A stretch of 64,000 bases of DNA, from assembly GCA_015487555.1 (NCBI GenBank), contig WFPK01000052.1, positions 44,144 through 108,143 on the forward strand, written 5' to 3'. The position numbers were made by a program, and so were the translations under genes. The notes below the pieces were generated by a model that was not told the origin of the DNA, did not search any database, and worked only from the letters and a program-made list of their open reading frames with translations. Positions 5,456 to 51,306 of the stretch are shown in pieces. Position 1 is the first letter of the stretch. Each line of letters opens with the position of its first letter. Source of the DNA: Phycisphaerales bacterium. GTDB lineage: Bacteria > Planctomycetota > Phycisphaerae > Phycisphaerales > UBA1924.

Positions 5456-5540
5456 TTTCTTTCCTTTCCTGCTATTTCTATCTGTAAGTCCTGAATTAGC
5501 CTTCTAACAAACGCTGCCTACGAGCAGCGTGATACGATGC

Positions 5541-37089: not shown

Positions 37090-37974
37090 CTAAGTCGCCC
37101 CGCCCTCAAACACAATCCGCTCGATCTTCCGATGCGGATCAGGCTCGGGCACCGCAGACAACAGCGACTGCGTGTACCGATGCTGAGGATTATCAATAAT
37201 CTCGTCGCGGGTTCCCTCTTCGACAATCTTGCCCTTATACATCACCGCGATCCGTTCGCACACATGCTGAATCACCGCCATGTCGTGCGAGATAAACAGA
37301 TAGCTCAGCTGGAACTCTTCCTGCAAATCCATCAGCAGATTAATCACCTGCGCCTGGATCGACACATCGAGCGCACTCGTCGGCTCATCGCACACAATAA
37401 ACTTGGGCTCCAATGCCAATGCACGAGCAATCCCGATCCGTTGCCGTTGACCACCAGAGAACTCATGGGGATACCGATCCGCAGCCGCCTTGGGCATCCC
37501 GCACCGCACCAGAATATTCTCGACCCGCTCGCGAAGCTCTGCCTTCGACGAAACCATCCCATGAATCACCAAAGGCTCGCCCACAATCGCCGCGATCCGC
37601 ATCCGAGGATTCAACGATCCCGCCGGGTCTTGGAATACAATCTGCATATCCCGGCGCAGCCGCTGGAGCTCTTGCCCCGAAGCAGCAAAGACATCGTGCC
37701 CATCAAAGATCACTCGGCCGCCCGAGTGAGGTTGAAGCCGAAGGATCGTCCGACCAATCGTGGTCTTGCCACACCCCGACTCGCCCACCAGCCCAAGCGT
37801 CTCGCCTGGCTTGATATGGAATGACACCCCATCGACCGCCTTGAAGTGACTCGTCACCCGCTGGAGCAGCCCCGACCGGATCGGAAAGTAAGTCTTCAAA
37901 TCATCAACCACCAGCAACGGCTTCTCGGGCGTTGAATCGGGGGTCATCGACGCACTATCGTTGGTATCACTCAT
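37090..37974 (-). CDS. Oligopeptide/dipeptide-type ABC transporter ATP-binding protein (OppF/DppF-like)
   Basis: Walker A GESGCGKTT, signature FSGGQRQRIGIARAL, and Walker B FIVCDEPTSALD. It has the C-terminal oligopeptide-type extension. There are no adjacent permease or binding-protein genes. Confidence 0.85.
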   Translation of the reverse strand: MSDTNDSASMTPDSTPEKPLLVVDDLKTYFPIRSGLLQRVTSHFKAVDGVSFHIKPGETLGLVGESGCGKTTIGRTILRLQPHSGGRVIFDGHDVFAASGQELQRLRRDMQIVFQDPAGSLNPRMRIAAIVGEPLVIHGMVSSKAELRERVENILVRCGMPKAAADRYPHEFSGGQRQRIGIARALALEPKFIVCDEPTSALDVSIQAQVINLLMDLQEEFQLSYLFISHDMAVIQHVCERIAVMYKGKIVEEGTRDEIIDNPQHRYTQSLLSAVPEPDPHRKIERIVFEGGAT

Positions 37975-38133
37975 GCAACCATCTTAGCCAATCCATCCGC
38001 CGTCCGAAAGCCTCCCCCCAAAGAATGAATCCCCCACTTTGACACGCAAATGAGTTGACGCGTCCCCATTCTCGGGTATCCTTACCCCCGTGAGGCCCGC
38101 CTCACCCGAAAACGCTCCCGCAAGGAAGCAGTC

Positions 38134-38206
38134 GGGCATATAGCTCAGTTGGTAGAGCACGGCATTGAAAATGCCGGTGTCCGTGGTTCAAGTCCGCGTA
38201 TGCCCA
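38134..38206 (+). tRNA. tRNA-Phe (GAA)
   Basis: GGGCATATAGCTCAGTTGGTAGAGCACGGCATTGAAAATGCCGGTGTCCGTGGTTCAAGTCCGCGTATGCCCA. The acceptor stem is GGGCATA/TATGCCC, the anticodon stem-loop is CGGCA-TTGAAAA-TGCCG, and the T-loop is GGTTCAAGTCC. Confidence 0.9.
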
Positions 38207-39497
38207 TTGATTGGTTCTGCAAAGAACCGCAAAGACCAGAAGGGATCAGCATAAGTGCTGGTTCCTTTTTAGTTTGCGCTCCGTTTTGATCTTCTTTGCC
38301 GGTTGTTGCGGATTGCTGCTGCGCTGCCATTTGCGCCCCAAGTGCGCCGCATTCTGCGCCGCTTTTTTCAGTCTGCTTCATCGCTATCGGTGTTGATGCA
38401 GCACGCTCATAATCCTCATCACGAACCATGTGGTAGTGAGCCTCAGCGATCGCCTGGGAGTGCCCCATCCATGCTGTGCATTGAGCCGACGGATATACGG
38501 CCGCCAACTCGGTCGCCCTGCTTGCCCGCATGTTATTGAACAAATTAGGCCATGCGTTCAAGCCAGCCCGCTCGATGAGCCGCCGCATGTGCGTGCCCAG
38601 ATTCGACCCCAAGTCCCGATACCGCCCCACGACGAACTCAGCACCATCGGGGGCACACTCATATGCCTGCATCAACACCTCTCGAAGCTCAGGAAACAAC
38701 GGCACCATTCGCTCTGCCTTGCCCTGATGATGCTCGGTCTTTGGCGATCGAACCCTAAATCGGTTGTTTGCCCAGTCAATATCCGCCCAGCGAACCCCCA
38801 ACACTTCCGATGGGCAACGCAACCCACCAAATCGAGCCAGTGCCACAATGCACCGCCAGTCAGCATCCGGGCATGCCTCCATGACCTTGAAGATGGCCTC
38901 TGGAGTGATAAAGAATGCCTTTTCCCTGTTTGTTTTTCGCCCGGCTTTCACATCTTCAAACGGATTGCTCGGGATCATCCCCCACTTCACTGCTTTCTTG
39001 AAGAACATCCGCGCCCCGCGAATATCGCGTCCGATTGTGGCCTCGGCGTATTTCTTCCCACACAACCATGCCCGCCATTTGTCACCTTCGAGTGAAGTAA
39101 TCGAATCGAGTTGGCGTGAATCGCCAAAGTATGCAATGAGCCGCCGTTGAGTTTGGGCATATCGGATGCGAGTTGATTCCTTCACGCTTACCGTGGCGAA
39201 ATACTCATCAAGCATCCCACCAAGCGTGCGGGTCTTGGCCGCCTCTCTTGGCTCTGCAAGACCTGCCAATACCAGCTTGGCGTAGGTGTCGTCTGGAAGG
39301 TCTGCAAGCCATTCGGCGGTCTGTGGGTTGATCGGTGTGTTGAGTCTGACCGAATCAATCAGCGATTCCACCCGAACCTTGAACGCCTCGGCTGCCTTGA
39401 CATTGATCTTGCCGAGCCGAATCGTGCGCCGATTACCTTTGGAAATCATGAACTGGATGCGTTTGGAGCCGTCTTTGTCGCGAATGAGTGATGCCAT
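38145..39497 (-). CDS. int: Tyrosine site-specific integrase (integrated-state reading frame ends inside tRNA-Phe)
   Basis: 450 aa. It has an N-terminal arm/SAM-like region and a catalytic domain with ...GLRCPSEV..., ...NMRASRATELA..., ...WMGHSQAIAEAHYHMV (catalytic Tyr). The last 14 codons (EPRTPAFSMPCSTN) are antisense of the tRNA body. Confidence 0.9.
   Translation of the reverse strand: MASLIRDKDGSKRIQFMISKGNRRTIRLGKINVKAAEAFKVRVESLIDSVRLNTPINPQTAEWLADLPDDTYAKLVLAGLAEPREAAKTRTLGGMLDEYFATVSVKESTRIRYAQTQRRLIAYFGDSRQLDSITSLEGDKWRAWLCGKKYAEATIGRDIRGARMFFKKAVKWGMIPSNPFEDVKAGRKTNREKAFFITPEAIFKVMEACPDADWRCIVALARFGGLRCPSEVLGVRWADIDWANNRFRVRSPKTEHHQGKAERMVPLFPELREVLMQAYECAPDGAEFVVGRYRDLGSNLGTHMRRLIERAGLNAWPNLFNNMRASRATELAAVYPSAQCTAWMGHSQAIAEAHYHMVRDEDYERAASTPIAMKQTEKSGAECGALGAQMAAQQQSATTGKEDQNGAQTKKEPALMLIPSGLCGSLQNQSMGIRGLEPRTPAFSMPCSTN
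38191..38208 (+). repeat. attL core (3' end of tRNA-Phe)
   Basis: AGTCCGCGTATGCCCATT, identical to 47923..47940. Confidence 0.8.
38340..38360 (+). repeat. 21-bp repeat copy 1 (inside the element, 131 bp from the attL core)
   Basis: AAGTGCGCCGCATTCTGCGCC, identical to 47853..47873. Confidence 0.9.
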
Positions 39498-41602
39498 TAT
39501 TTTCTACCTTCCTGATCCGAGTCTACCGGATTCGTATCGCCGATGCGAGGTTCATTGTTCAGATTGGGGCCGCGAAGATCCACCGGGGGTATCCTGTTCA
39601 GTTGCTCTGAATCACATACACCGCCATTGTCCGCCACATCTCCCTCTATGGCAAAGTTGGCGGGCTTTGGTTCATCTTGGCGGTCTATGGTGGGCATTGC
39701 CCACATCCAGCGACCACTACTTGAGAATCCCTCGCGGATTGCTGTTGCCTTGATTCGCTTCTTGGCACGCTCGATCGTGCGCCATGCAAGCCCGTCCTGC
39801 TCGCCCATTCTCCTGATGTCACTTGATGCCATCGGGCCGTCACTGAGCACATCGCGGAGCCATTTCCCGGCTTCATCACCCGCGCTGCTCCCACCGGTGC
39901 TGTTAGCCAGCACCTCGGATGCTGTGATACTCACTGAATCGGCTTCCCACTGGACCCGAGCAGGATCATCGCCGATCGTGAATGCCAAACCCGGCGAGGG
40001 GATGGACAGGTTCATCTTGCCGGGGAGTAAAAACCGCCGATCTTCATCATCGGGATCACGCATCAAATGGAGCACCGATCGGGCAAGCCCAGTGAATGCC
40101 CTTGAGCCGAGCACCATGTCATCTGGGTTCGCCGCTGCGCCCTTGCGTTGGTGGGCTACCAGCACCACCGCTGCGCCTGTTTCTTGGGCGAGGGCAGCCA
40201 GTGGAGCCAACACCGCACGCACTTCATTGTCCCGATGTGCATCTACGCGCCCGCCCATATATGAGCCGATCGGATCAATCACGATCAGCCGCACATCGCC
40301 GATAGTTCTGAGGGCTTGGTGGAGTGGATCAATATCGGCCAGAGTGAATGCGCCCTCAAGCATGTTGCCATGCTTGCCCTGTGCGTGAACACCCTTGAGC
40401 ATATGAATCTGCTCAGAATCAGCATTATGGGCATCGAGCCGAGGGCGGATGGTGTCTCCTGGATCGTCCTCAGCCGAAACCAGTAGCACGCTCCCCGCTT
40501 CGCACGATGCTCCATCGGGCCAGTCCTGCCCGGTGCTCACTCTCGCTGCCCAATCGAGCGTAGCGAACGATTTGCCCTCGCCGGGTCGGCCAACCAGTAG
40601 GCTCAATCGACCCAAGGGCAGCCGTCCAGCCCAAAGCCAACTCACCTTCTGCGCTTGCACATCGGCCATACGCAAGAGCACCGGGCTGCCACATTGGGGA
40701 GCGGATTGCAACTTCTTGGGCGCACACGCCTTTGCGAGTGCCTCAACTGCTTCACGCACCGCGCCCGTGTCACCTTGGGTAAGTTCCAGCACATCGGCCA
40801 TGTCTCCGCCCTTGGGCAACTCAGGCCAACGCTCGATCAAATGCACGATCTTCACCGATGCTGCGCCCGCTTCGCGTGCAAGCTGATGCACACCATCGGC
40901 ATATTTCTCACCTGGCTCATCGTGATCGGGAAGGATCACCACTTCGCGCCCGGCCAATGGTGTCCAGTCCGCATTGCCTGCGCTCTTGCTCCCATGTGGG
41001 CTTGTGGTGGCGATCAGCCCGCACGCTCGGGCCGCGTCCGCAGCCTTCTCGCCCTCACACACATACACCACGCCCTCGGCTTTGAGCAACTCAGCAAGCC
41101 CATACAAGGGCCTCGGTTCAGGCATCCCGCCGATGAACCAACCCGCACCGTTTCGGGACACCGGGCGCATCTTCTTGCCAGATTCAGTATCCCACCGCAC
41201 CATCACCCCCACCGGTTCACCTTGAGCATCGTGGTATGTCCATGCCTTCGATCTTGGGCCGTGTTTGCGCTCCAACGCCTCAACCGCTTGGTGAGCCGTG
41301 GAGTATGTGACTTTTTGGGGCCTCGGGTGTCTGGTGTGGGGTGTTGGATGCTCTTCTGGGAACAAATTACGCATCTCCAATCCAATCGCCTCAATCACTG
41401 ATTCGGTGGTGCAACCAGCATGGCACTTGAGCAATGCCCGTCCATCATCGCCGGGGGTGATGCTCAGGCTCGGGTTCCGATCATCATGGGCCGGGCATCG
41501 ACACATCCAGCCAGTGCCAGATTGTTTGGGTTCGTGTCCAATGACTCTGAGCGCATCGAGCACACGCTGGATGGGATTCGAGGTATTCGTGTTGATGCTC
41601 AT
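39497..41602 (-). CDS. Bifunctional DNA primase / replicative helicase-like ATPase (zinc-binding + Toprim + RecA-like AAA_25)
   Basis: CRCPAHDDRNPSLSI...LKCHAGC zinc motif. Toprim VYVCEGEKAADA...ILPDHDEPG. Walker A GRPGEGKS and Walker B VLLVSAEDD. There is a 1-nt overlap with the int start. Confidence 0.85.
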   Translation of the reverse strand: MSINTNTSNPIQRVLDALRVIGHEPKQSGTGWMCRCPAHDDRNPSLSITPGDDGRALLKCHAGCTTESVIEAIGLEMRNLFPEEHPTPHTRHPRPQKVTYSTAHQAVEALERKHGPRSKAWTYHDAQGEPVGVMVRWDTESGKKMRPVSRNGAGWFIGGMPEPRPLYGLAELLKAEGVVYVCEGEKAADAARACGLIATTSPHGSKSAGNADWTPLAGREVVILPDHDEPGEKYADGVHQLAREAGAASVKIVHLIERWPELPKGGDMADVLELTQGDTGAVREAVEALAKACAPKKLQSAPQCGSPVLLRMADVQAQKVSWLWAGRLPLGRLSLLVGRPGEGKSFATLDWAARVSTGQDWPDGASCEAGSVLLVSAEDDPGDTIRPRLDAHNADSEQIHMLKGVHAQGKHGNMLEGAFTLADIDPLHQALRTIGDVRLIVIDPIGSYMGGRVDAHRDNEVRAVLAPLAALAQETGAAVVLVAHQRKGAAANPDDMVLGSRAFTGLARSVLHLMRDPDDEDRRFLLPGKMNLSIPSPGLAFTIGDDPARVQWEADSVSITASEVLANSTGGSSAGDEAGKWLRDVLSDGPMASSDIRRMGEQDGLAWRTIERAKKRIKATAIREGFSSSGRWMWAMPTIDRQDEPKPANFAIEGDVADNGGVCDSEQLNRIPPVDLRGPNLNNEPRIGDTNPVDSDQEGRK

Positions 41603-42006
41603 GCCTCACCCCCTACATGCTGCCCGACGGCGACCCACACAGCTGCGGGGCATCCGCGTTGGGTGAGCCGTCGATTCCCTGTATCTCGGATCAAACCCAG
41701 CTTCGCAAGCTCTCCGCGACGGGCGGAATAACTTGCAGCGAATATGTCGAGTTGAGTTTCGCCCTCATCGTCAGTGAGTCCATGCGCCCCACTTGCCAAG
41801 ATCGCTCGATAGATTCGTGCCCGTTGGGTGGGCGTGCGGGCCGCGATCATCATGGCTGCCACTTCCGAGGTGCCTTTGGGCGCATTGTGTCGGAATGGTG
41901 GGCGCAGGTCTTGGGCCGAGGGTGTATGCTTAGCATGTTGTGAGTTTTCGGCATCGCCACCAATGGCAGGTGTGGGCGTGCCATTTCCAAATAGATCATT
42001 TTGCAT
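41599..42006 (-). CDS. Hypothetical protein, possible winged-helix DNA-binding protein
   Basis: The start is trimmed to MQNDLFG. The C-terminal part RIYRAILASGAHGLTDDE...ARRGELAKLGLIRDTG resembles a wHTH. It overlaps its neighbours within the operon. Confidence 0.4.
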   Translation of the reverse strand: MQNDLFGNGTPTPAIGGDAENSQHAKHTPSAQDLRPPFRHNAPKGTSEVAAMMIAARTPTQRARIYRAILASGAHGLTDDEGETQLDIFAASYSARRGELAKLGLIRDTGNRRLTQRGCPAAVWVAVGQHVGGEA

Positions 42007-42226
42007 CGGTCTGCCCTCCCTTGCGGGCAATGAACGCCTCCAACTCGGCAACTGGGATCAGCACGATTCGATCGAGCTTGAATGATCCGATCTGCCCGGA
42101 TTTGAGCAGTGTGTGCAATGTTCGCTCAGACACGCCAAGGGCATTGGCGGCTTCCCGCTTGCGGAGGGTGAGCCGAAGATCGGATGGGGGATTGGGGGTC
42201 GGTGCGGGTGGTTGCCAGTTATTCAC
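41996..42226 (-). CDS. Helix-turn-helix (excisionase/AlpA-like, HTH_17) protein
   Basis: LTLRKREAANALGVSERTLHTLLKSGQIGSFKLDRIVLIPVAELEAFI. Confidence 0.7.
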   Translation of the reverse strand: MNNWQPPAPTPNPPSDLRLTLRKREAANALGVSERTLHTLLKSGQIGSFKLDRIVLIPVAELEAFIARKGGQTDAK

Positions 42227-42423
42227 TCGGCACCCCCTTCACGCTCGGCATATTCGGCGAGTTTGATTCGGGCGCGTTCGAGGTGAACCAGCCACCGCCG
42301 CCCGGCTTTGATTGCAGGGATGCGCCCGGCCTCCGCTTCAGATTGAAGCCATGCGATTGGGACCCCCAAGTTTGACGCTGCACGCCTGATGGGAACAAAT
42401 GTTGTTTGTGTTTCTTGGCTCAT
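42223..42423 (-). CDS. Helix-turn-helix (excisionase/AlpA-like, HTH_17) protein
   Basis: The start is trimmed to MSQETQ. Sequence FVPIRRAASNLGVPIAWLQSEAEAGRIPAIKAGRRWLVHLERARIKL. Confidence 0.65.
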   Translation of the reverse strand: MSQETQTTFVPIRRAASNLGVPIAWLQSEAEAGRIPAIKAGRRWLVHLERARIKLAEYAEREGGAE

Positions 42424-42468
42424 ACTGCGAGCATTGCAGCATTTTGAGCAAGACCAAACCAATCCAAT

Positions 42469-43806
42469 TCAGTTCTTCGGTTTGCTTACGGCCCCTTCGC
42501 TTTCCTTCGCCCGTTTGATAGCCGTTTTGTATTCAGGATACCTTTCATAGACTTCAATGATGGAATGATGCCAGCGGTCGGACACCTTCAAACTTCTCTT
42601 CAATCGTCCATCATTCGCGGCAACTCGTAATAAGTCTGCGTATAAGCCTCCATCAGTCGCTGAAGAAAACCATGCGGCATTTCTTCTCTCGACCGCAGAC
42701 GATGAAAATAGCCTTTCCGAACCAGAAGTAGCCTTTTTTTGTTCTTCTACTGTCCCGTCAATATACAATGCCAACCCCACAATCAACTCCTCGATAGGCC
42801 GATAGGCCTCGGAAATCGCTTTTTGTGGATATACAGAATGCCCCTCTCTATCGCAGCGGAGTGCCCCTCTTTTGAGCAAATGGTCACCAGGCAGCTCGTT
42901 TTTCATTCCCATCAATGGGGGAGGAAATATATTGAGGGCGAGCGTGTTCATACCATCCATTGCTGCCCGTATGCGATCTTGTAGCTCTGGGCGGTGTATT
43001 TGAAATGTTGCGTCTCTCGCCCTTCGAAGAGCTGGCTCCCATGTCGCCCACCATTTTCGATTGTCCTCAAGCAACTCTATTTTCTTTGCCTTCAAATCTT
43101 CGCCATGTTCATGCTGAATCACATCAGCCCATTCAGACGCATTGCCTTGGAATACGCGAATATGCCGTTGCACATCACGCATCGCTCTACTCAGCTCGTC
43201 ATACGGGTTGATTCCCGGCTCATCGCACGGCTGCCCATCACCAGTTGGAATCGTCATTCCCACTGGCATCACTTCCCCCGTCCGAGCACTCCATGTTGCT
43301 CGCTCAAGCAGATCCAACACCTCGCCGGGAGGGCTATCGACGCTGTTGTGTTCACTGTTTTCCCAACAAATCATGCCACGCCCAAGTAATCCGGGGACTT
43401 CCTCACCGAACTGCCAAGGCAACGCTGCAAACGGACACATTGATTTTGAAATATATTCATTGGCATTGGGATCAATCGCCAGCACAAGGGTGAGCACAAC
43501 CATGCTCGCAGCGAGTTTTCGCTCCTCGTGCGGCATAGGCTCCTCGAATCGCATGTCAGAATACCCATTTGGGTACTCATCAGAGACTACGGCAACCTTG
43601 GCGCGGTCTAGCCGAGGAAAGATCAACTCTTCCGATGATTTTTCGGCCCATTTGCCATCATGGTCATCTTGTTTCAGATGATTCTCAGAGAAGATTTCTG
43701 TGAGCCGTTTCCCTGCTTCGGTAAAGACCTCACGATTGGCCTCGATCACTTTTCGAGTTGCACGAAGTAAGCCCTCTCGCCGGGCTGGGGTTGCATTTGA
43801 TGCCAT
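42469..43806 (-). CDS. Orphan 445-aa cytoplasmic protein, no recognisable family (island cargo)
   Basis: Long uninterrupted ORF, AT-richer than its surroundings. The start is trimmed to MASNATPARREG, with GGAAGGTGA 5-8 nt upstream of the ATG at 43806. No TM or signal sequence, and no motif that I recognise. Confidence 0.6.
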   Translation of the reverse strand: MASNATPARREGLLRATRKVIEANREVFTEAGKRLTEIFSENHLKQDDHDGKWAEKSSEELIFPRLDRAKVAVVSDEYPNGYSDMRFEEPMPHEERKLAASMVVLTLVLAIDPNANEYISKSMCPFAALPWQFGEEVPGLLGRGMICWENSEHNSVDSPPGEVLDLLERATWSARTGEVMPVGMTIPTGDGQPCDEPGINPYDELSRAMRDVQRHIRVFQGNASEWADVIQHEHGEDLKAKKIELLEDNRKWWATWEPALRRARDATFQIHRPELQDRIRAAMDGMNTLALNIFPPPLMGMKNELPGDHLLKRGALRCDREGHSVYPQKAISEAYRPIEELIVGLALYIDGTVEEQKKATSGSERLFSSSAVERRNAAWFSSATDGGLYADLLRVAANDGRLKRSLKVSDRWHHSIIEVYERYPEYKTAIKRAKESEGAVSKPKN

Positions 43807-44143
43807 CTTGTTCACCTTCCTCGGGCCGAGCGAGCGCGGCTGGGTCGGAAGGTGAATGACCCCGCCGCGTTCGCTCATCGTCGGAGCAACCCGACAAACC
43901 CGTATTTGATGTAGATCATACCACACCGAACAAAGATGCGACAAAGCGGGCCCTCCATGATTTCGCAAAGACCCCCAAAATCATCATTTTCCCTGTTTTT
44001 TCCCTGTTTACCCAACAATCCATAGGAAACACTGGGAGCAGTACGCGCGCGTGCGCGAGGGGATGCCTCAAATCTACCCGCCTATGAATATCTCCCACCT
44101 GAAGAATGGACAAATCCGTCCAGATACACGATGATCTAGACAC

Positions 44144-47100
44144 ATGGATACACCCACATTTATCGCCAAATGGTCAAAGGCCCAGCTCTCCGAGCGGGCC
44201 GCCTCGCAAGAACATTTTATCGACCTCTGCCGCCTCCTCGGCGTGAAGACACCCGCCGAACTCGATCCCACGGGCGATACCTTTACATTCGAGAAGGGAG
44301 CGAAGGTCTCAGGGCCCGCCTCGATCGGCTCGAAGGGGGCCCACGGGTGGGCGGATGTGTGGTACAAAGGGCGGTTCGCTTGGGAATACAAACGCAAGGA
44401 CAAATACAAGAACTTGGCCGAGGCCTACCGCCAGCTCCAGCAATACCGCGAAGACCTGGGCAACCCGCCGCTGATGATCGTCAGCGACATCACCAACTAC
44501 GAAATCCATACCAACTTCACCGGCTACAAGCCCGAGGTCTTCACCTTCACCCTCGATCAACTCTCCGACCCCGGCACCCTCACCCTCCTCAAACGGGTCT
44601 TCACCGATCCCGAGTCCTTCAAGCCCACCGAGACCGTCGCCGCCATCACCGAGAAGATCGCCGCCAAGATCGGTACCATCGCCCAGCACCTCCGCGATCG
44701 CGGGCATGAGCCGCACGATGCCGCCCATTTTCTGATGAAGGTCATGTTCTGCCTCTTCGCTGAGGATGTGGAACTCCTCCCCAAGGGGCTCTTTGAGCGT
44801 GTCCTCATCAAATCCAAGGACGATCCAGCCCGGCTCAAGAAACAAATGGACGCGATCTTCGATGCTATGCGCACCGGCGGGGACTTCGGCGTAGACGAAA
44901 TCAGCTACTTCAATGGCGGGCTCTTCGACAACGCCGAATCCATCGAACTCACCACCGACGAAATCGAAATCCTCATCGACGCGGCCATCCAAGATTGGTC
45001 GGTCATCGAACCCTCGATCCTCGGCACCCTCTTTGAACGCTCGCTCGATCCCTCAAAGCGATCGCAGATCGGGGCGCACTACACATCCCGCGAAGACATC
45101 ATGCTCGTCATCGAGCCGGTCATTGTCCGCCCGCTTCGCAAGCAGTGGGAAGAGACCAAAGCGCAGATCGAAGACCAGCTCGAACGCCGACGCAAGGGGA
45201 AGACATCGGCCACCAAGAAAAAGGCCGATGCCGAAATCGCCAACCTGCTCGATGGGTTCCAAACCAAGCTCTCCTCCGTTCGCGTCCTCGATCCCGCCTG
45301 CGGCTCGGGCAACTTCCTCTATGTCGCCATCCAGCAACTCCTCTTCCTCGAAAAAGAAGTCATCCTCTACGCATCCCGTGAAGAACTCGGGGTCGGCGGG
45401 TTGCTCCCCCGCGTGCGCCCAACCCAACTCCTCGGCATCGAAATCAACCCCTACGCCTCCGAACTCGCCCAAGTCGCCATCTGGATCGGATACCTCCAAT
45501 GGATGCGAGACAACGGCTTCAACGCCCCCAGAGACCCCATCCTCGAACCCATCGACACCATCGAAAACCGAGACGCGATCCTGGCGTGGGCCGATGAGGA
45601 TGGCGAGCGGATCAGCGTGTGGCGTGAGGGTGCGAAGTGCTTGGGCCAAGCCAAATGGCCCGAGGCGGATTTCATTGTGGGGAATCCGCCGTTTTTGGGG
45701 TCTCGTAAAGCACGAATGGAACTTGGTGATGAGTATGTGGATGCATACCAATCAGCATTTTCCACGACTCCCGAAGGCGTAGATTTATGCTGCTATTGGT
45801 TTGAACTAGCTGGTGCGCAAGTAGTTCAGCATCCCACCTTGCGGGCGGGATTGTTGGCGACACAAGGAATCCGCGGTGGGTCAAGCAGATCAGTATTGCA
45901 ACGAATCGAATCTAGATCAACAATCTTCTTTGCTATATCTGACAGAGTTTGGGAACTGGATGGAGCAACAGTACACATCTCAGTCGTGGGCTTTACTTTA
46001 GATTCTGACGAGCAATATATTTTGGATTGCCTGCCTGTTGACGGCATCAACTCCGATCTCACAGAGGGCGTAAATCTTACTAAAGCGACCAAAAAACCAG
46101 AAAACGCATCCATTTCTTTTCAAGGTACTATCAACAGTGGATCATTTGATCTCTCATATACCGAAGCGTGTCGCATGCTAACTATCCCAAACCCTATCCA
46201 AGCAAATAACGCAGATGTACTCAGGCCTTGGTGCAATGGTCGTGATTTGACTAAAAGAACAAGGGGGCAATGGATTGTAGATTTTGGTGTTGATCGTGAT
46301 GAAAAAGAATGCGCTCAGTACGAAGAGCCATTTGATTATGTTGTGAATCATATAAAACCTCAACGAGACAAGCTGAAAGATGGAAAGCAAAAATACGCGC
46401 ATTCATCGAAATATCCATTTTGGCAAATGTGGAATCCTCGCCCAGAAATGCGAAAAACGCTGCCCGCCGATAGCCGCTATGTCGGCACGCCAAGAGTCAC
46501 AAAATATAGATTGTTCAAATGGATGGATTCAACTCATCTTCCTGACGCACAGATTATTGTCTTCGCCCGTTCTGACGATTATTTTTTCGGCACCCTCCAC
46601 AGCAGCATCCACGAACTCTGGGCACGCCGGCTTGGGTCACAACTCCGAGACGCTGAATCAGGTTTCCGCTACACACCCACTACTTGCTTCGAGACCTTCC
46701 CCCTCCCGTGGTCGCCGGGGCATGAGCCGGGCGAGGGTGAGCCTCAGCGTCCGCTCCACGATGCCATCGGCGAGGCCGCCGCAACCCTCAACGAACAGCG
46801 CGAGCGATGGCTCAACCCGCCCGAGTGGGTGCAACCGATCGCCGACCGGATTGATGCCGAGGATGATTTCGCCGATGTGCTCGCCGTCAGTGGCGAGGAG
46901 GCCCAACGCTTGATCCGCCAGAGCGCGATTGATGCCGCCTGCGCCAAAGACCCCAAACTCAAGAAACGCACCCTCACCAACCTCTACAACGAACGCCCGA
47001 CTTGGTTGAGACTCGCCCACAAAGCCCTCGACCAAGCCGTGATTGCCGCCTACGCCGCCGTTGATCCCGATGGCGATTGGGACACCGCTTGGGCTGAGGT

Positions 47101-47221
47101 CTTCGAGGAAACCGGAGCCGGTCAACCCTTGCCCGAGGGGCATGAGTTGATAGAACGCCGGGAAGAGGTGGAGCAGTTGATTTTGGGGAATCTGCTTCGG
47201 ATGAACCAAGCGCGGGCGTGA
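44144..47221 (+). CDS. MmeI-family Type IIL restriction-modification enzyme (fused endonuclease + N6-adenine methyltransferase + TRD)
   Basis: 1025 aa. The N-terminal nuclease motif is D71-X9-E81-X-K83 (ADVWYKGRFAWEYKRK, 44354..44392). SAM motif I is VLDPACGSGNFL, and motif IV is NPPF (45683..45694). The long C-terminal TRD and helical region are as in MmeI-like enzymes. Confidence 0.85.
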   Translation: MDTPTFIAKWSKAQLSERAASQEHFIDLCRLLGVKTPAELDPTGDTFTFEKGAKVSGPASIGSKGAHGWADVWYKGRFAWEYKRKDKYKNLAEAYRQLQQYREDLGNPPLMIVSDITNYEIHTNFTGYKPEVFTFTLDQLSDPGTLTLLKRVFTDPESFKPTETVAAITEKIAAKIGTIAQHLRDRGHEPHDAAHFLMKVMFCLFAEDVELLPKGLFERVLIKSKDDPARLKKQMDAIFDAMRTGGDFGVDEISYFNGGLFDNAESIELTTDEIEILIDAAIQDWSVIEPSILGTLFERSLDPSKRSQIGAHYTSREDIMLVIEPVIVRPLRKQWEETKAQIEDQLERRRKGKTSATKKKADAEIANLLDGFQTKLSSVRVLDPACGSGNFLYVAIQQLLFLEKEVILYASREELGVGGLLPRVRPTQLLGIEINPYASELAQVAIWIGYLQWMRDNGFNAPRDPILEPIDTIENRDAILAWADEDGERISVWREGAKCLGQAKWPEADFIVGNPPFLGSRKARMELGDEYVDAYQSAFSTTPEGVDLCCYWFELAGAQVVQHPTLRAGLLATQGIRGGSSRSVLQRIESRSTIFFAISDRVWELDGATVHISVVGFTLDSDEQYILDCLPVDGINSDLTEGVNLTKATKKPENASISFQGTINSGSFDLSYTEACRMLTIPNPIQANNADVLRPWCNGRDLTKRTRGQWIVDFGVDRDEKECAQYEEPFDYVVNHIKPQRDKLKDGKQKYAHSSKYPFWQMWNPRPEMRKTLPADSRYVGTPRVTKYRLFKWMDSTHLPDAQIIVFARSDDYFFGTLHSSIHELWARRLGSQLRDAESGFRYTPTTCFETFPLPWSPGHEPGEGEPQRPLHDAIGEAAATLNEQRERWLNPPEWVQPIADRIDAEDDFADVLAVSGEEAQRLIRQSAIDAACAKDPKLKKRTLTNLYNERPTWLRLAHKALDQAVIAAYAAVDPDGDWDTAWAEVFEETGAGQPLPEGHELIERREEVEQLILGNLLRMNQARA

Positions 47222-47307
47222 TCTGCCAGAAGCATTGATTCTTCGCCCCATTGAGGCCACGACACGCCGCTCGCGTGCGATGCGCGGGGTTTGCTAGAAA
47301 CGGGTAT

Positions 47308-47679
47308 TCAAAGTTCAGTAGCACATAAAGCGTGTTTTCGATCTGGATTGAGTTGCTCGATATGCCGCTGAAGTTTTTGTTTTTCTTCTTCAAGATGAGC
47401 GAAAACTTCGTCATTCAGATCATCGCTGTAAAGCAGCTCAAAGAACTCTTTGATTTCCCGTTTGGTCAGAAAAGCAACCCACCCCGCCCAATCTGTCTGA
47501 ACTGCATGAATCTTTCCTGATTCTCTCCATTGGTGAAAGAGCGTCCACGCATTGCGCCCATCACGAAAGAATGGACTTTTCCGCTTCGGAGTCTTGGTAG
47601 CCAGCCCATTTTCGTCGGGTTCAGAATCATCCATGTTTGAGATGTATACATCGAGATATGGCATTGTGATTGCTTCCAT
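47308..47679 (-). CDS. Orphan small protein (about 119-140 aa; start 47730/47679/47664 uncertain), island cargo
   Basis: AT-rich ORF ...MPYLDVYISNMDDSEPDENGL...WTLFHQWRESGKIHAVQTDWAGWVAFLTKREIKEFFELLYSD... No family was recognised. The upstream alternative TTG start overlaps the stop of the int-tail segment. Confidence 0.45.
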   Translation of the reverse strand: MEAITMPYLDVYISNMDDSEPDENGLATKTPKRKSPFFRDGRNAWTLFHQWRESGKIHAVQTDWAGWVAFLTKREIKEFFELLYSDDLNDEVFAHLEEEKQKLQRHIEQLNPDRKHALCATEL

Positions 47680-47726
47680 GAAAAGATAGGCCTTTGAATC
47701 GAATGGTTCTATCAATCCGTAGGTCC

Positions 47727-47939
47727 TCAATGTTCTCCACCGCTGATCAACTCCAGAATCTTCCCTCGCACATCTTCACAAAGCGTTGGCCAGACTCGGA
47801 GAACCTGATCGAGGTCGGGATCGGCTGAGCTGGATTGGGGCGAATCGCCAGAAAGTGCGCCGCATTCTGCGCCCCCACTCTCTGAAATCGGCGTTTCTAT
47901 ATGCGCCAGTGCGGTATGTTTGAGTCCGCGTATGCCCAT
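47727..47939 (-). other. Displaced 3' segment of the integrase reading frame (it would be fused in-frame to int across the att core in the excised circle)
   Basis: The minus strand reads MGIRGL-KHTALAHIETPISESGGAECGALSGDSPQSSSADPDLDQVLRVWPTLCEDVRGKILELISGGEH*. The MGIRGL codons are the att core, read in the same phase as in int (ATG at 38207 and 47939, both in phase with their ORFs). Confidence 0.5.
47853..47873 (+). repeat. 21-bp repeat copy 2 (inside the element, 49 bp from the attR core)
   Basis: AAGTGCGCCGCATTCTGCGCC, identical to 38340..38360 and in the same orientation. Confidence 0.9.
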
Positions 47940-47940
47940 T
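47923..47940 (+). repeat. attR core (displaced copy of the tRNA-Phe 3' end)
   Basis: AGTCCGCGTATGCCCATT. The flanking 5' bases (TGTTTG) only partly match the T-arm (GGTTCA). Confidence 0.8.
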
Positions 47941-47950
47941 CCCAATCAAG

Positions 47951-47982
47951 AAAAGCCTCGGGTCAAACCCGAGGCTTTTTTT
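47951..47982 (+). terminator. Rho-independent terminator, probably the original tRNA-Phe terminator now downstream of attR
   Basis: AAAAGCCTCGGG-tcaaa-CCCGAGGCTTTT, followed by a T-run. It starts 10 nt after the attR core. Confidence 0.7.
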
Positions 47983-48077
47983 CATCGACCACCTCAACCA
48001 ACTCCACAGACTCCATCGAAAAACACCCCAAGCCAAAGCCAGGGGTGCCATTGAGTGTGTAAAGCTTCGCACCTGCC

Positions 48078-49352
48078 CTATGGACAGCCGGCACTAAACG
48101 CCGCGAGGAACGCCGAGATATCGAAGAAGTTCCATGTGCCATTGTTATCAAAGTCCGCTCCCGGATCCTGAGCAGCGAACAAAGAAAGAAACTCCGAAAT
48201 ATCAAAGAAGTTCAGGGCCCCGTCACAGTTGATATCCGCAGGGCAACAATCGAAACCACTTGGCCCATAAAGCACATGCTCGAACGAAGCCATCGGGGTG
48301 TAGCTCAGGCCTTCACATGCGAATCCGCCGAACCAGAAGAGCCCAGCGTGGAGGGTCTCGCCGTCTGAACCACCGGGTAGTGGTGCGTAGATTGCGAATG
48401 CATCTTCCTGACCAGTTGCACCCGGTATCGCGGTATCGAGGTCCCAGGTCCAAGTGCCGTCGCCGTTGTCGATCGCAGTCCCCTCGCCAACACCAAAATT
48501 GATGCCGATTGTTTTGAATGAGTCCGCAAGATCACCATCGATCACACCATCACCATCATGATCGGCTGTTCCGGGCTGGAAAAACCGAACCGACCAACCC
48601 CAATCAAACAACCCATCCTGGTCGAAGTCTGTGTCGGGGAAGCCATCGAAATCATGGTCGCCAAGCCAATACCCAGGCGTATAAAACGCAGCCCCCTGAG
48701 AGTCGCTATCCGTATCCCCAAGCTCAAAGGTCATCGAACTTGAGAACGAACCAGCAAGGTCAATGTCTGCGCTGTAGCCTGCCAATGCGCCATCGTCGAA
48801 GGGTGTGCCGGGCAAATCAGTGAGCCGAAACGAAACCAATGGGAAGCGGTCGCAACGATCACTTCGTCCATTTTCCCCGTCCCAATAAGTCCACTCACCC
48901 GCAAGCCCAACAACCCCATCGCCGACGCCATCGGAATCAGAATCCGTATCAATGTGCCCGGTCACCCAGTTGATATGCACCATATCAACAACCGTATCCA
49001 CAGCCACATCGCCAAAGTCAAGAACAGTAATGCCAGTCGCCAACGAAGTTGTATCAGCGTTATTGTCAACCCCATAGAAAAACTCCGTGGTATACCCCGC
49101 ACCCGCGCACGGATTCGACACCAACGATGACCAGATCGGCCCACTCATCCCAGCAGCAGGTGCTACCTGCTCGTCACCGAGCACCGTCACCACCCGCTCG
49201 CCACTCATGATGTTGTAGTAAATATGAGCAACATCAACCACCTGACCATGCGTCGGCGATAAAGTCACCGGCGATTCCGCAGCCTCAGCAACACCGCCGA
49301 TACCACCGGCACAAAGACAAATCAAAAGAACGCCACTTCCTACACTTTTCAT
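48078..49352 (-). CDS. Secreted Asp-rich Ca-binding-like protein with a C-terminal GC-type dockerin-like domain (paralog 1)
   Basis: The start is trimmed to MKSVGSGVLLICLCAGG (GGGAG upstream), which is a signal peptide. It has DxDxDG-type stretches (DTDSDSDGVGDGV, DHDGDGVIDGD). The C-terminus has two repeats, INCDGALNFFDISEFL and DNNGTWNFFDISAFL, and ends in AGCP. Confidence 0.75.
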   Translation of the reverse strand: MKSVGSGVLLICLCAGGIGGVAEAAESPVTLSPTHGQVVDVAHIYYNIMSGERVVTVLGDEQVAPAAGMSGPIWSSLVSNPCAGAGYTTEFFYGVDNNADTTSLATGITVLDFGDVAVDTVVDMVHINWVTGHIDTDSDSDGVGDGVVGLAGEWTYWDGENGRSDRCDRFPLVSFRLTDLPGTPFDDGALAGYSADIDLAGSFSSSMTFELGDTDSDSQGAAFYTPGYWLGDHDFDGFPDTDFDQDGLFDWGWSVRFFQPGTADHDGDGVIDGDLADSFKTIGINFGVGEGTAIDNGDGTWTWDLDTAIPGATGQEDAFAIYAPLPGGSDGETLHAGLFWFGGFACEGLSYTPMASFEHVLYGPSGFDCCPADINCDGALNFFDISEFLSLFAAQDPGADFDNNGTWNFFDISAFLAAFSAGCP

Positions 49353-49584
49353 TTCATAGCTCCCATTTCCACTGCATTTCCCAAGCAATCCCCAAAAAAC
49401 AGATCGCCGATAACCCGAGCAGGCCGTTGCCCCCTATCCGCACCGCTGAGAAAGCAGTTGCATCAATCTGTTCGATATCAATATATTCATCCTGCACAAC
49501 ATCGCCAATCTCTCACGCATATTCATAGAAAAACACCCGAAAAGGCTCGGGTGTTGAAGGATGATCGTGGAACAATGCCCACAC

Positions 49585-50895
49585 TCATGGGCAGCCTGTA
49601 TTGAACGCCGAGAGGAATGCGGAAATGTCAAAGAAGTTCAACTTGCCATCACCTGTAAAGTCCGCCTGCAAATCCCCAGCTGCAAACAACTCGAGGAACT
49701 TCGAAATATCAAAGAAATTCAACTCGCCATCACAGTTGATATCCACCGGGCAACAGCCGCTCCCGCCGCCAGGCCCAACAAGCTGAGCCCGGAACTGCCC
49801 CAGTGGCGTAAACCCCTCGGAGGTGCATGACAGGATTCCAAAGAGCATTCCCGCGTGCAAGCCATCAAAGTACAGCGCAACCCCCTCCTCCGCACCGTAC
49901 CCGTAATCCCCTGGAGCAGGTATTGGCATCTCCCAAGTCCACGATCCATTTCCTTGCTCAACCCAAACCCCCGCAGGACGAGCAAAGCTGACTCCAATTG
50001 GCTTTTGCGAATCCGCAAAGTCGCCATCAATCACCCCATCACCATCGAGATCGGCCGTACCCGGCTGATAGAACCGCACCGACCAACCCCAGTCAAACAA
50101 CCCATCGCCATCAAGATCCGAATCGGGCAATCCGTCAAAATCACGATCGGCATTGGCAATCGAAACCCCATCGCCAATCCCATCACCATCGGTATCCACA
50201 TCATTGTGGAAATAAGTCGCAGTCGAGACGCCATCGGAATCGCCAATCTCAAAGGTCAGCGAATCCTCGGGCAGAATACTCCTGAGGTCAATGTCGGCTG
50301 TATACCCGGCGAAGAACCCATCTCCGAAAATATTTCCCGGAAGGTTCGCAAACAGAACTGAAATCAAAGGCAGCCGTGTCGAGACATTGATCGCCCGGCC
50401 ATTGTCCGCATCCCAATAAGTCCACTGCCCACCAAGCCCGACAACACCATCGCCGATCCCGTCCGAATCTTCATCTGTGTCATTGTGCCCGGTGATCCAC
50501 TCAATATGAACCATGTCAACCACGCTATCAAGGGCGATATCACCAAAGTCAAGAACCTCAAAACCGGTCATCCCCCCCGGCGAGTTATCGTCCACAACAA
50601 AGAACGGACTCCCACCATCGCTCACCGCAGGGCACGGATCATCCGACATCACCGACCAGATCGGCCCGCTCGACCAGTCTGCCCCCGCAGGGTCGGCCTG
50701 GTCGGGCAAAGAATCGTCCCCTGCCAGTGTAATCACCCGCTCACCGCTGGCCACATGATAATAGATATGCGCGACCTGAACAACCTGCCCACGCGCAACC
50801 GGAAGCTGGCTCGGCGAATCCTCGCCACGAGCAACTCCACAAACAACACCTGCTGAAAGGACCAAAATCAAAGCACTGCTACTTGCGTTTTTCAT
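49585..50895 (-). CDS. Secreted Asp-rich protein with a GC-type dockerin-like C-terminus (paralog 2)
   Basis: 436 aa, collinear with paralog 1 (for example VVDMVHIEWITGHNDTDEDSDGIGDGVVGLGGQWTYWD versus VVDMVHINWVTGHIDTDSDSDGVGDGVVGLAGEWTYWD). It ends ...INCDGELNFFDISKFL...GDGKLNFFDISAFLSAFNTGCP. Confidence 0.75.
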   Translation of the reverse strand: MKNASSSALILVLSAGVVCGVARGEDSPSQLPVARGQVVQVAHIYYHVASGERVITLAGDDSLPDQADPAGADWSSGPIWSVMSDDPCPAVSDGGSPFFVVDDNSPGGMTGFEVLDFGDIALDSVVDMVHIEWITGHNDTDEDSDGIGDGVVGLGGQWTYWDADNGRAINVSTRLPLISVLFANLPGNIFGDGFFAGYTADIDLRSILPEDSLTFEIGDSDGVSTATYFHNDVDTDGDGIGDGVSIANADRDFDGLPDSDLDGDGLFDWGWSVRFYQPGTADLDGDGVIDGDFADSQKPIGVSFARPAGVWVEQGNGSWTWEMPIPAPGDYGYGAEEGVALYFDGLHAGMLFGILSCTSEGFTPLGQFRAQLVGPGGGSGCCPVDINCDGELNFFDISKFLELFAAGDLQADFTGDGKLNFFDISAFLSAFNTGCP

Positions 50896-50925: not shown

Positions 50926-51249
50926 CTACGGGCAACCCGCACTAAACTCGGCCAAGAACGCCGAGATATCGAAAAAGCCAAAAGTGCCGCTGTGATCAAA
51001 ATCCGCCCGCGGATCACCAGCGTCAAACAACACCAAAAACGCTGAAATATCAAAGAAGCCCAACACCCCATCACCCCTCAGCGTCTCCACCCGCTCGACC
51101 GTCACGATATTGAAAGAGATATGCGCCGCATCAACCACCCGCCCCCGGCTCGCTTCAAGCGCCACCAAAGGCTCATCACCCGCAAGCAAACTCCCCGCAC
51201 CGCCCGCACACAGACACACACCCAAAATCGCATTCCCTGCACTCTTCAT
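50926..51249 (-). CDS. Internally deleted paralog: signal peptide plus about 45 N-terminal residues fused to the dockerin-like C-terminus (107 aa)
   Basis: MKSAGNAILGVCLCAGG...RGRVVDAAHISFNIVTVERVETLRGDGVLGFFDISAFLVLFDAGDPRADFDHSGTFGFFDISAFLAEFSAGCP. The junction GD|GVLGFFDIS corresponds to LGDEQ... and CDGALNFFDIS in paralog 1. Confidence 0.6.
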   Translation of the reverse strand: MKSAGNAILGVCLCAGGAGSLLAGDEPLVALEASRGRVVDAAHISFNIVTVERVETLRGDGVLGFFDISAFLVLFDAGDPRADFDHSGTFGFFDISAFLAEFSAGCP

Positions 51250-51250
51250 T

Positions 51251-51306
51251 CCCCTGCTCCAAATCCCCTGCTCCAAATCCCCTGCTCCAAATCCCCTGCT
51301 CCAAAC
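51251..51306. repeat. Tandem repeat, 14 bp x 4 (CCCCTGCTCCAAAT; the last unit ends in C)
   Basis: Units lie at 51251-64, 51265-78, 51279-92 and 51293-306. The repeat lies immediately 5' of the ATG (51249) of the truncated dockerin gene. On the coding strand each unit reads ATTTGGAGCAGGGG, which contains GGAG. Confidence 0.9.

Follow-up and report, generated by a model that had tools for sequence, protein, structure and literature searches.

The integrated element and its operon

The analysed window, a stretch of 64,000 nucleotides from contig WFPK01000052.1 (Phycisphaerales bacterium), contains an integrated element of about 9.75 kb. Its features are as follows.

38186–47940, no strand: integrated element, with a 23-nt direct repeat at its ends
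38134–38206: tRNA-Phe
38186–38208: attL, in the 3' end of the tRNA-Phe
47918–47940: attR
42469–43806, minus: CDS of a 445-aa three-module protein (the head gene; ATG at 43806, stop codon at 42471–42469)
42223–42462, minus: first HTH_17/excisionase-like small gene (weak Pfam HTH_17, PHROG RDF/excisionase; conserved ATG at 42423)
41996–42226, minus: second HTH_17 gene, AlpA/excisionase-type (Pfam PF12728 at 1.5e-9)
38145–42051, minus: rest of the operon (ORFs, Pfam), made up of the next three genes
41599–42051, minus: 150-aa protein
39497–41602, minus: primase/AAA_25 helicase
38145–39497, minus: tyrosine integrase
44144–47221, plus: MmeI-like type IIG restriction-modification (RM) gene, on the cargo side (MmeI domains, PADLOC type IIG match)
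47308–47730, minus: 140-aa orphan, on the cargo side

The operon genes abut or overlap, and no terminator-like site was found within the scanned interval 41500–44300. The second HTH_17 gene was present in all of the first eight related loci searched with tblastn (8/8). In PADLOC, the MmeI-like neighbour matched type IIG RM models by itself, without the 445-aa protein, and none of the P4-like satellite genes psu, sid, delta or other capsid-hijack genes was detected by PHROG or Pfam among the unknown element genes scanned.

The preliminary description of this DNA had read a 445-aa ORF from the ATG at 43806 on the minus strand, preceded by a Shine-Dalgarno (SD) sequence, and this reading held: the SD GGAAGGTGA was found at 43820–43812, 5 nt ahead of the ATG. 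The spacing of 45 nt to the first HTH_17-like gene (from the stop at 42469 to the conserved ATG at 42423) and the 337-bp divergent intergenic region separating it from the type IIG RM gene (start at 44144) were both recovered, as was the AT-richer composition of the ORF (GC 0.48–0.53 vs 0.57–0.62 in the HTH_17/replicase module), the integrase gene having a GC of 0.54–0.57. A dN/dS near 1 had been named as evidence against the gene; the ratio against the closest relative was 0.17, well below 1, with per-module values of 0.14–0.32, and the ORF is a real gene under purifying selection. A longer reading from a TTG start (499 aa; 491 aa in some gene calls) was dropped, as frame-breaking 1–2-nt indels occur between loci upstream of the ATG. 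The apparent conservation of the upstream 'translation' arises because the leader is kept only as nucleotide sequence and RNA structure.

A recurrent three-module protein family

The 445-aa protein belonged to no curated family in Pfam, NCBIfam, PHROGs or PADLOC. Profile searches against Pfam, PHROGs and NCBIfam returned 0 families, and the sole PADLOC line (ZorA, E = 0.029 over 32 residues) was not a meaningful match. Likewise, no significant match was obtained among PDB sequences with phmmer (best E = 0.53), nor with Foldseek for the full AF2 model (pLDDT 91.2; best E = 0.43 in the PDB and 0.37 in the BFVD viral predicted structures). The protein had been described as lacking any recognisable catalytic, membrane or nucleotide-binding signature, in agreement with these empty profile searches, and a confident match to a known family, which would have spoken against that description, appeared in neither the remote homology nor the structure searches. 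Its conserved residues were mostly structural, along with Arg/Asp pairs.

The label 'orphan' was apt insofar as the protein had no annotated or characterised relatives, but it did not capture the existence of a recurrent unnamed family, for which an exhaustive search yielded 83 cluster representatives. Eleven close relatives were found at 36–83% identity, and a second word-indexed homolog search with an 88-sequence alignment as query added only three proteins, all already known. The AF2 model contained three confident domains with low-confidence linkers at residues 187–189 and 362–370, and the corresponding stretches (N, M and C) occurred separately among relatives according to hmmsearch stretches and module HMMs. 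The protein has three independently shuffled modules:

43237–43806, minus: N module, aa 1–190, the most conserved part, found alone or with other partners in relatives
42712–43236, minus: M module, aa 191–365, a long four-helix bundle by secondary structure, with stand-alone M and M–C proteins known
42472–42711, minus: C module, aa 366–445, winged-helix-like (predicted topology, 28-sequence alignment), an exchangeable slot in the family

This architecture had not been seen in the preliminary description.

The N module (domain model pLDDT 92.5, pTM 0.90) was best conserved at R18, F28, R65, A100, D112, W148, P159 and A170. Searched alone against the PDB with Foldseek, it had no fold analogue (best E = 0.9, TM below 0.26), and the haemoglobin and TetR rows in that search were discarded as noise (TM below 0.26). 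The M module possessed a conserved loop, E-x-P-G-D-H-L, and conserved residues D203, E204, R207, W253, W256, R262, G307, H309 and L310. Its Foldseek matches were weak, generic four-helix bundles only; those to the Tar and Vc1313 ligand-binding domains (probability 0.6–0.77, target TM 0.44–0.49, E≥1) were at the level expected of any long four-helix bundle, and no 4HB_MCP/Tar-like sensor profile in Pfam matched the module. A HEPN-like R-x4-6-H motif was also considered for M and rejected, the conserved His309 in 'PGDHL' not being preceded by a conserved Arg at the required spacing.

The C module was modelled with the order β-α-α-β-β-α (E374–376, H377–383, H390–398, E406–408, E411–415, H416–422; pLDDT above 90, AF2) and ended in a conserved tail, …ESEGxVSxPKN. 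This predicted order would be shared with the excisionase/MerR winged-helix proteins (HTH_17, PF12728), as would a wing-like conserved 'G-R-L…S-x-K…R-W' segment. Unlike those proteins, the C module is preceded in one chain by 365 residues of unrelated sequence (N and M), ends in a conserved acidic/lysine tail and lacks sequence-profile similarity to the HTH_17 family. Its assignment to HTH_17 (PF12728) by sequence was unsupported, as no HTH family was detected by Pfam at E≤1 on 28 C-module sequences and hhalign against the element's own HTH_17 proteins gave a probability of 3.8%. A PDB profile search with the module returned nothing, and its Foldseek neighbours comprised only phage MerR-like/HTH proteins, all weak and non-significant (E>0.9). 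Relatives with the same N–M body carry other DNA-binding domains in the C slot, as judged from sequence profiles: HTH_24 at residues 424–453 of P0006, above Pfam's cut-off, together with a weak HTH_23 match in P0013 and a weak KfrA_N match (0.015) at the C-terminus of P0012. By analogy with these and from its modelled topology, the C module of the 445-aa protein itself may bind DNA.

Across the 88 family members, curated-profile matches were scattered and of HTH type only, and those to PHROGs were all regulators (MarR ×3, excisionase, MerR-like, repressor). PADLOC gave no meaningful match for 87 of the 88 members and one weak mad1 match (2.5e-5) for the remaining one. Most members came from marine or environmental metagenomes. 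Relatives were absent from 2.9 million viral contigs (IMG/VR) and 50,697 phage genomes, and tblastn against phage and plasmid collections found none.

In every locus with a readable neighbourhood, the gene lay just upstream of one or more HTH_17 genes, a replicase (PrimHel, DUF3987 or other) and a tyrosine integrase, and a tRNA came next wherever the stretch extended to the element end. Loci resembling that of the window had the order cargo, head gene, HTH_17, replicase, integrase and then tRNA (Ile, Phe or Val), and the same order was found in relatives at 26–31% identity and in variants with M–C only, N plus another module, or another module plus C. The cargo differed by locus, being a type IIG RM, a type I RM, an AbiH-like gene or nothing recognisable. 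The head gene thus holds a fixed position in the element backbone. Replicases beside the N–M body were of several types (primase-AAA_25, DUF3987, a 259-aa protein and an HTH_36 protein); a matching of N or M to one replicase type was looked for across loci, and no correlation was found. DUF3987 was present in the relatives L002, L009, L011 and L013. The element ends of L002, L005 and L008 could not be defined, as exact repeats of at least 14 nt were absent there.

A structured leader RNA ahead of the head gene

Three features were located between the head gene and the type IIG RM gene:

43801–43913, minus: structured 5' leader RNA of ~113 nt, conserved across loci (covariation, covariance model)
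43915–43944, minus: promoter-like site TTGTCG-18 nt-TATGAT with a TG extension (pattern scan; conserved across loci)
43987–44058, no strand: operator-like candidate motifs in the divergent region (repeat finder, cross-locus alignment)

The leader (MFE −50.8 kcal/mol, z −3.24) folds into a closing stem, a short hairpin and a 19-bp hairpin with a 13-nt apical loop. This loop contains an anti-SD, UCACCUUCC (43855–43847, letters also given as CACCUUCC), complementary to the SD GGAAGGUGA (43820–43812). In an alignment of seven sequences, 91.7% of cells were paired in the leader helices, with 16 pairs showing compensatory changes; none of 500 shuffles reached this value, and slid controls gave 34–44%. 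In the loop–SD pairing, 88.7% of cells were paired (7 sequences), with one compensatory change from U-A to C-G. The leader structure and its complementarity to the SD exist, and the pairing, at the ribosome-binding site (RBS), may repress translation. The preliminary description had missed the structured leader, whose conserved anti-SD loop has the reported SD as its 3' partner.

The covariance model matched every close locus as well as the distant L011 (50.8 bits). The leader was undetected in L002, L009, L010 and L012–L014, and so is not universal in the wider family. Rfam at E≤1 across 37900–48300 returned the tRNA only, with no family for the leader; in viral contigs, 115 pattern matches to the leader motif were found, approximately the number expected by chance on a rough estimate, and none fitted the covariance model.

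The c4/CI immunity RNAs of phages P1, P7 and P4 (Rfam C4, RF01695) are likewise structured and encoded in the leader of an operon. In both cases a loop is complementary to the region where ribosomes bind on the operon's own first downstream gene, so that repression of translation is possible. The leader described here differs in having no Rfam match at E≤1 and in showing one evident complementary loop vs two target boxes; unlike the trans-acting C4/CI RNAs, it may be confined to action in cis, as a pseudoknot that sequesters the SD.

Further upstream, two conserved candidate motifs were recognised, one a tandem 11-nt repeat (AACAGGGAAAA ×2, 44008–43987), the other CG-rich (TCGCGCACGCGCGCGTA, 44058–44042) and present, duplicated, even in the distant locus L009. 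A link between the AACAGnGA repeats and the C-module type was rejected, since L007 has a different C module with the same repeats and L008 the same C module without them.

Possible roles of the head gene and comparison with known systems

Our tentative reading, to which we give somewhat less than an even chance, is that the head gene, itself translationally gated, codes for a modular protein that binds DNA and regulates or switches the induction operon of the element. The backbone of this small tRNA-integrating element would consist of the integrase, replicase, HTH_17 proteins and head protein. From the conserved extended −10 promoter, one transcript would cover the head gene, the two HTH_17 genes and the genes for the 150-aa protein, primase-helicase and integrase. 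The ~113-nt leader would then fold and, since its apical loop is able to pair with the SD, translation of the first cistron is proposed to be normally held down. Once made, the head protein would bind element DNA via its putative C-terminal winged-helix module, and N (a new fold) and M (a four-helix bundle) could mediate oligomerisation, receive a signal or partner protein, or do both. In this way the programme of excision and replication would be switched on or off, or else the promoter of the adjacent cargo; either might be the regulatory target of the head protein. Because neither N nor M has an analogue of known function, their putative role as a sensor is purely something that we infer.

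Of the three roles suggested in the preliminary description, that of regulator now has the most support, from the winged-helix-like C module and from the other DNA-binding domains carried in the C slot by relatives (HTH_24, and MarR, MerR and excisionase matches in PHROGs). Backbone position, modularity, the lack of an enzyme or defence signature, tight expression control, operon layout and purifying selection also argue for this reading as a whole. Several observations argue against it. The window-type C module has no sequence similarity to any HTH family, and its structural matches to HTH proteins are non-significant; no operator is linked to the head protein, as the AACAGnGA repeats do not follow the C-module type; and three small wHTH/HTH_17-type proteins already present in the element could regulate. 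In addition, classical master repressors of elements are transcribed divergently from the operon that they control, whereas the head gene is co-directional with its operon and first in it.

Alternatively, the product could be an infection sensor or an abortive-infection/defence protein, in which N and M detect some component of a phage and the protein then acts against the phage or the cell; the leader is proposed to silence it because the product is toxic. Module shuffling at a fixed locus beside restriction-type cargo is typical of conflict systems, tight translational gating fits a dosage-sensitive or toxic product, and the AT-richer composition relative to the HTH_17/replicase module and the single weak mad1 match point the same way. 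This explanation is nonetheless unlikely: the protein has no effector-type domain, catalytic motif or transmembrane segment, nearly the whole family is without a meaningful PADLOC match, and the gene is kept while the cargo changes or is missing, and would be co-transcribed with the excision/replication genes rather than with cargo. The earlier suggestion of a defence effector, taken as cargo, is weakened, the gene being fixed backbone beside truly variable cargo. We consider it similarly improbable that the protein is a replication or maintenance accessory, binding an origin or partition site (as an initiator-helper, KfrA-like) and bringing the replicase to the excised circle. Its position upstream of the replicase within one operon would suit such a role, as would a C-terminal DNA-binding slot that in P0012 weakly matches KfrA_N, a DNA-binding domain of plasmid replication regions, and the upstream tandem repeats and CG-rich motif could be iterons. 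However, the N–M body persists across changes of replicase type and so is not specific to any one of them, the repeats and the C type show no covariation, and P4-type and DUF3987-type replicases usually bind their origin by themselves.

A still less probable explanation is exploitation of a helper phage by a minimalist satellite, through redirection of packaging or as an antirepressor or activator of the helper. In P1 and P4, genes of this kind follow an immunity RNA, and the loop predicted to mask the RBS of the operon's first gene recalls the c4–icd/ant arrangement, which has an RBS-masking RNA. The set of int, HTH_17/AlpA and primase that defines minimalist satellites (PMC10803314) is present, and marine or environmental metagenomes, settings rich in such satellites (PMC9618062), supplied most family members. 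Against this, neither a relative nor a leader copy occurred in the 2.9 million viral contigs or the 50,697 phage genomes, the head protein has no capsid, terminase or packaging similarity, and there is no known helper. The satellite-specific function suggested in the preliminary description, on which the absence of relatives and leader copies from viral contigs bears, was neither supported nor contradicted.

In a bolder and improbable form of the regulator reading, the head gene and leader would constitute an undescribed induction circuit of a new minimalist defence-carrying island/satellite family in Planctomycetota-like marine bacteria. The leader would be an RNA immunity element, its loop mimicking the 16S anti-SD and masking the RBS, and would silence a modular sensor protein made up of the new-fold N module and the four-helix M module. 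After translation this protein would use its exchangeable C module to bind DNA and would set off excision and replication; module shuffling would then reflect an arms race over the phage or cell signals that induce the element. If the head gene is a regulator, the control point of the element family is defined by it; if not, module shuffling beside restriction cargo would indicate a new conflict protein. The family marks a fixed, modular and probably tightly gated position at the head of an early operon, and contributes new objects: a confidently modelled domain without a PDB analogue, an exchangeable DNA-binding slot and a covarying leader RNA that would mask the RBS. Small islands built around integrase, AlpA and primase are increasingly recognised both as phage satellites and as plentiful carriers of anti-phage systems; to our knowledge, no such elements have been studied so far in this lineage.

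Among known systems, the Stl repressors of SaPIs combine a DNA-binding domain with a variable partner-sensing domain. The head protein resembles these Stl-type master regulators in its exchangeable DNA-binding module, its shuffled, fast-diversifying, non-enzymatic modules and its fixed regulatory position. It differs in that its DNA-binding module is C-terminal rather than N-terminal, its gene points the same way as the operon, which it opens, instead of being divergent from it, and it has neither sequence nor structural similarity to Stl, nor a known partner.

At the level of the whole element, the closest parallels are the minimalist satellites defined by co-localised integrase, AlpA/HTH_17 and primase (DUF3987/DUF5906), including the PICMIs of Vibrionaceae (PMC10803314), for which the switch-on of the 'early' operon has been raised as a question (PMC10803314), and the marine VEIMEs, related islands with integrase, AlpA/HTH_17 and primase that are abundant in marine settings (PMC9618062). 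The PICMI-type gene set was found in the window (integrase, two HTH_17 genes, primase-AAA_25). As in PICMIs and VEIMEs (PMC10803314, PMC9618062), the elements described here are small (6–10 kb) and integrated, encode a tyrosine integrase, HTH_17/AlpA and a primase (DUF3987 in several relatives, primase-AAA_25 in the window element), and have few unknown genes, a defence-type cargo gene and no capsid genes. Compared with both groups, no sign of phage induction or packaging was seen for the element of the window, relatives being absent from the IMG/VR contigs and phage genomes searched. Unlike PICMIs, which lie beside fis, it is integrated in tRNA-Phe (its relatives in tRNA-Ile, -Phe or -Val), its genes are in reverse order, the integrase closing the operon, and its host lineage is Phycisphaerales-like rather than Vibrionaceae; it further possesses the three-module head gene and the structured leader, both undescribed for PICMIs.

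Reading frame and modules of the 445-aa protein

The ORF proposed in the preliminary description was recovered, along with the start codon, ribosome-binding site, gene spacing and AT-richer composition attributed to it.

42469–43806 (−), ORF of the 445-aa protein (target gene), ATG at 43806
43820–43812, Shine-Dalgarno (SD) sequence GGAAGGTGA
42423, conserved ATG of the next gene, after a gap of 45 nt from the target stop
44144–47221, MmeI-like type IIG restriction–modification (RM) gene, divergent from the target, its start at 44144 leaving a spacer of 337 bp

GC content was 0.48–0.53 in the ORF, lower than in the HTH_17/replicase module (0.57–0.62) and the integrase gene (0.54–0.57). Other gene calls are 491 aa long, and a TTG start extends the mechanical ORF to 499 aa. 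This longer TTG-start frame was rejected: because 1- or 2-nt indels between loci and compensatory base-pair changes occur upstream of the ATG, the stretch 5' of it is a conserved non-coding leader and translation starts at 43806. Against the closest relative (locus L003, 76% identity), dN/dS was 0.17 (0.15, 0.14 and 0.32 for the N, M and C modules, respectively). The feature is real, and more structured than first seen.

The protein lies outside all curated families, with no match in Pfam, PHROGs, NCBIfam, PADLOC or PDB sequences. A word-indexed search gave 11 relatives (36–83% identity), none of them named, and an exhaustive HMM search, run on 1.84 billion representatives, gave 83, including 19 at E≤1e-30. 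No tblastn match was obtained in phage and plasmid collections, and no relative was found in IMG/VR contigs.

Matched stretches and module-specific HMMs delimited three independently occurring units, N (aa 1–190), M (191–365) and C (366–445), in the combinations N–M–C, N–C, M–C, N + other, other + C, and other + N + other. In an AlphaFold2 model based on an 88-sequence alignment (mean pLDDT 91.2), low-confidence linkers coincided with the module borders, at 187–189 and 362–370. Modelled by itself, N reached pLDDT 92.5 and pTM 0.90, and no analogue could be detected in the PDB (best E 0.9, TM below 0.26). M was modelled as a long four-helix bundle with a conserved E-x-P-G-D-H-L loop, and its structural neighbours were generic bundles only. 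The C module, which by sequence is not HTH_17, has a β-α-α-β-β-α topology, and its sole structural neighbours, all non-significant, were phage MerR-like or HTH proteins. The extreme C-terminus …AKESEGAVSKPKN (window 42472–42510) is kept in many otherwise divergent C-module proteins of a 28-sequence alignment (A6), in the form …SEGxVSxxK[NGA]; a role in partner binding or as a degradation tag is possible.

A structured leader and the divergent control region

The divergent region upstream of the target is conserved across loci and contains the following features.

43913–43801 (−), structured leader of about 113 nt
43944–43915, promoter-like site TTGTCG-18-TATGAT with TG extension
43987–44058, operator-like motifs: tandem AACAGGGAAAA ×2, upstream of the promoter, and CG-rich TCGCGCACGCGCGCGTA

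A motif of the GCGCGCGTAGTGGTC type occurs twice in L003, L007, L001 and even in L009 (4890–4975), a distant locus in which the CG-rich motif recurs in duplicate. Copies of the leader lie in L001 (10007–10120), L003 and L007 (9893–10006), L005 (3564–3675), L008 (9892–10006) and L011 (1064–1177); none was detected in L002, L009, L010 or L012–L014, and Rfam gave no match.

The structure predicted by RNAalifold comprises a closing stem and two hairpins, one short and one of 19 bp. Trained on six sequences, a covariance model matched the distant L011 at 50.8 bits, just upstream of its family gene, where both hairpins are rebuilt from different sequence. In the resulting alignment, which holds only seven sequences and was fitted to the covariance model, the paired fraction of cells is 91.7% and compensatory changes occur at 16 of 40 pairs; none of 500 shuffles reached the observed pairing and slid controls gave 34–44%. 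The many G·U pairs indicate that the RNA is in the sense orientation. The single-sequence fold has an energy of −50.8 kcal/mol (z −3.24). Within the apical loop of 13 nt, UCACCUUCC is complementary to the SD GGAAGGUGA, with at least 6 bp kept in every sequence and one compensatory U-A to C-G change (L011); since most of this helix is invariant, covariation cannot prove it. The leader is possibly an SD-sequestering pseudoknot or a C4/CI-like immunity RNA, and translation of the target appears to be gated by it.

A fixed slot in tRNA-inserted islands

38134–38206, tRNA-Phe
47918–47940, 23-nt repeat of the tRNA-Phe 3' end
47308–47730 (−), 140-aa orphan ORF between the RM gene and attR (GC 0.47)

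The recurrence of the 23-nt repeat delimits a 9.75-kb island. Its minus-strand genes, which overlap or abut, run from the target through two HTH_17/excisionase-like genes, a 150-aa gene and a primase-helicase (Zn-ribbon/Toprim/AAA_25) to a tyrosine integrase, and a scan of 41500–44300 showed no terminator-like site. On the other arm lie the type IIG RM gene and the 140-aa orphan, for which Pfam, NCBIfam and PADLOC gave nothing and PHROGs just a non-significant line.

Within the RM gene, GC dips to 0.44–0.46 at 45750–46500 (about 0.60 elsewhere in the gene); the MmeI target-recognition domain aligns here, and a swap of the specificity domain would fit the dip. The integrase frame enters the tRNA-Phe gene and its stop codon lies inside the tRNA/att region (38145–38206), so that the gene acquires its end through integration. 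Beside attR lies an integrase C-terminus-like remnant (47727–47945), which shares 21 identical nt with the resident gene (47853–47873 and 38340–38360). L001, L004 and L006 each hold two integrase-like remnants (around 700–980 and 6290–6555); elements may thus have integrated into these tRNA sites repeatedly or in tandem. Close by, outside the element, two paralogous 436-aa secreted-looking proteins (48078–49388 and 49585–50895, −) and a 116-aa truncated copy (50926–51276, −) end in a dockerin/EF-hand-like repeat, 'CCPxDINCDGxLNFFDISxFL…AGCP', as does an ORF at the start of L010.

Genome and metagenome scans gave eight loci. Each has a tRNA (Ile, Phe or Val) 4–5 kb downstream and the order family gene, HTH_17, replicase, integrase. 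Distant and partial relatives keep this arrangement.

Gene order in loci of distant or partial relatives (X, family gene)
L009, P0013: type I RM cargo – X – 69 aa – HTH_17 – DUF3987 – integrase
L010, P0026 (M–C only): X – 66 aa – HTH_17 – …
L011, P0028 (N + other): X – HTH_17 ×2 – … – DUF3987 – integrase
L012, P0074 (other + C): X – … – integrase fragment
L013, P0034: type I RM + AAA_13 cargo – X – HTH_17 ×3 – DUF3987
L014, P0062 (other + C): MmeI_N remnant – X – HTH_17 – HTH_36 – HTH – integrase

Replicase type differs between loci, and cargo ranges from type IIG RM and type I RM to unknowns with an AbiH-like gene (L008) or nothing recognisable (L002). As the slot of the modular protein stays constant throughout, its gene belongs to the backbone and not to the cargo. 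The L008 cargo arm (3568–9547), without an RM gene, encodes unknown proteins of 517, 223, 226 and 130 aa beside the weak AbiH-like gene, and is a candidate uncharacterised defence cassette.

Possible role and relation to known systems

We infer, tentatively, that the modular protein binds DNA and regulates, or acts as a switch for, the excision–replication operon or the adjacent cargo promoter. This reading is supported by the backbone position at the head of the induction operon, the non-enzymatic character of the protein, the exchangeable DNA-binding C slot, the shuffling of modules that do not bind DNA, and the apparent gating by the leader. P0006, with the N–M body of the target, carries HTH_24 in the C slot above Pfam's cut-off, other relatives sharing this body have weak HTH_23 or KfrA_N matches there, and the few PHROG matches across the 88 members are all regulators. 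Weak points are that DNA binding by the C type of the target is predicted from its topology only, that no operator could be tied to the protein, that the element has other small HTH proteins, and that the orientation of the gene is unlike that of classical master repressors.

Beside the RM gene, a defence or abortive-infection sensor is conceivable and unlikely; a catalytic pattern is absent among the conserved residues of the family. An accessory role in replication or partition, within the operon of the primase-helicase, is likewise improbable. Exploitation of a helper by a satellite is very doubtful. PHROG and Pfam scans of unknown genes of the element gave no P4-type hijack genes, and no sign of phage mobilisation was seen.

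On paper, the leader would work like c4/CI immunity RNAs, and in the Rfam comparison it is not a member of the c4/CI family. Both this conserved RNA and the family of modular backbone proteins found in a small family of elements are new. PICMIs are defined by int, AlpA/HTH_17 and primase (PMC10803314), all present in the window element, and its content resembles that of marine VEIMEs (PMC9618062); it integrates in tRNAs, and its gene order differs.
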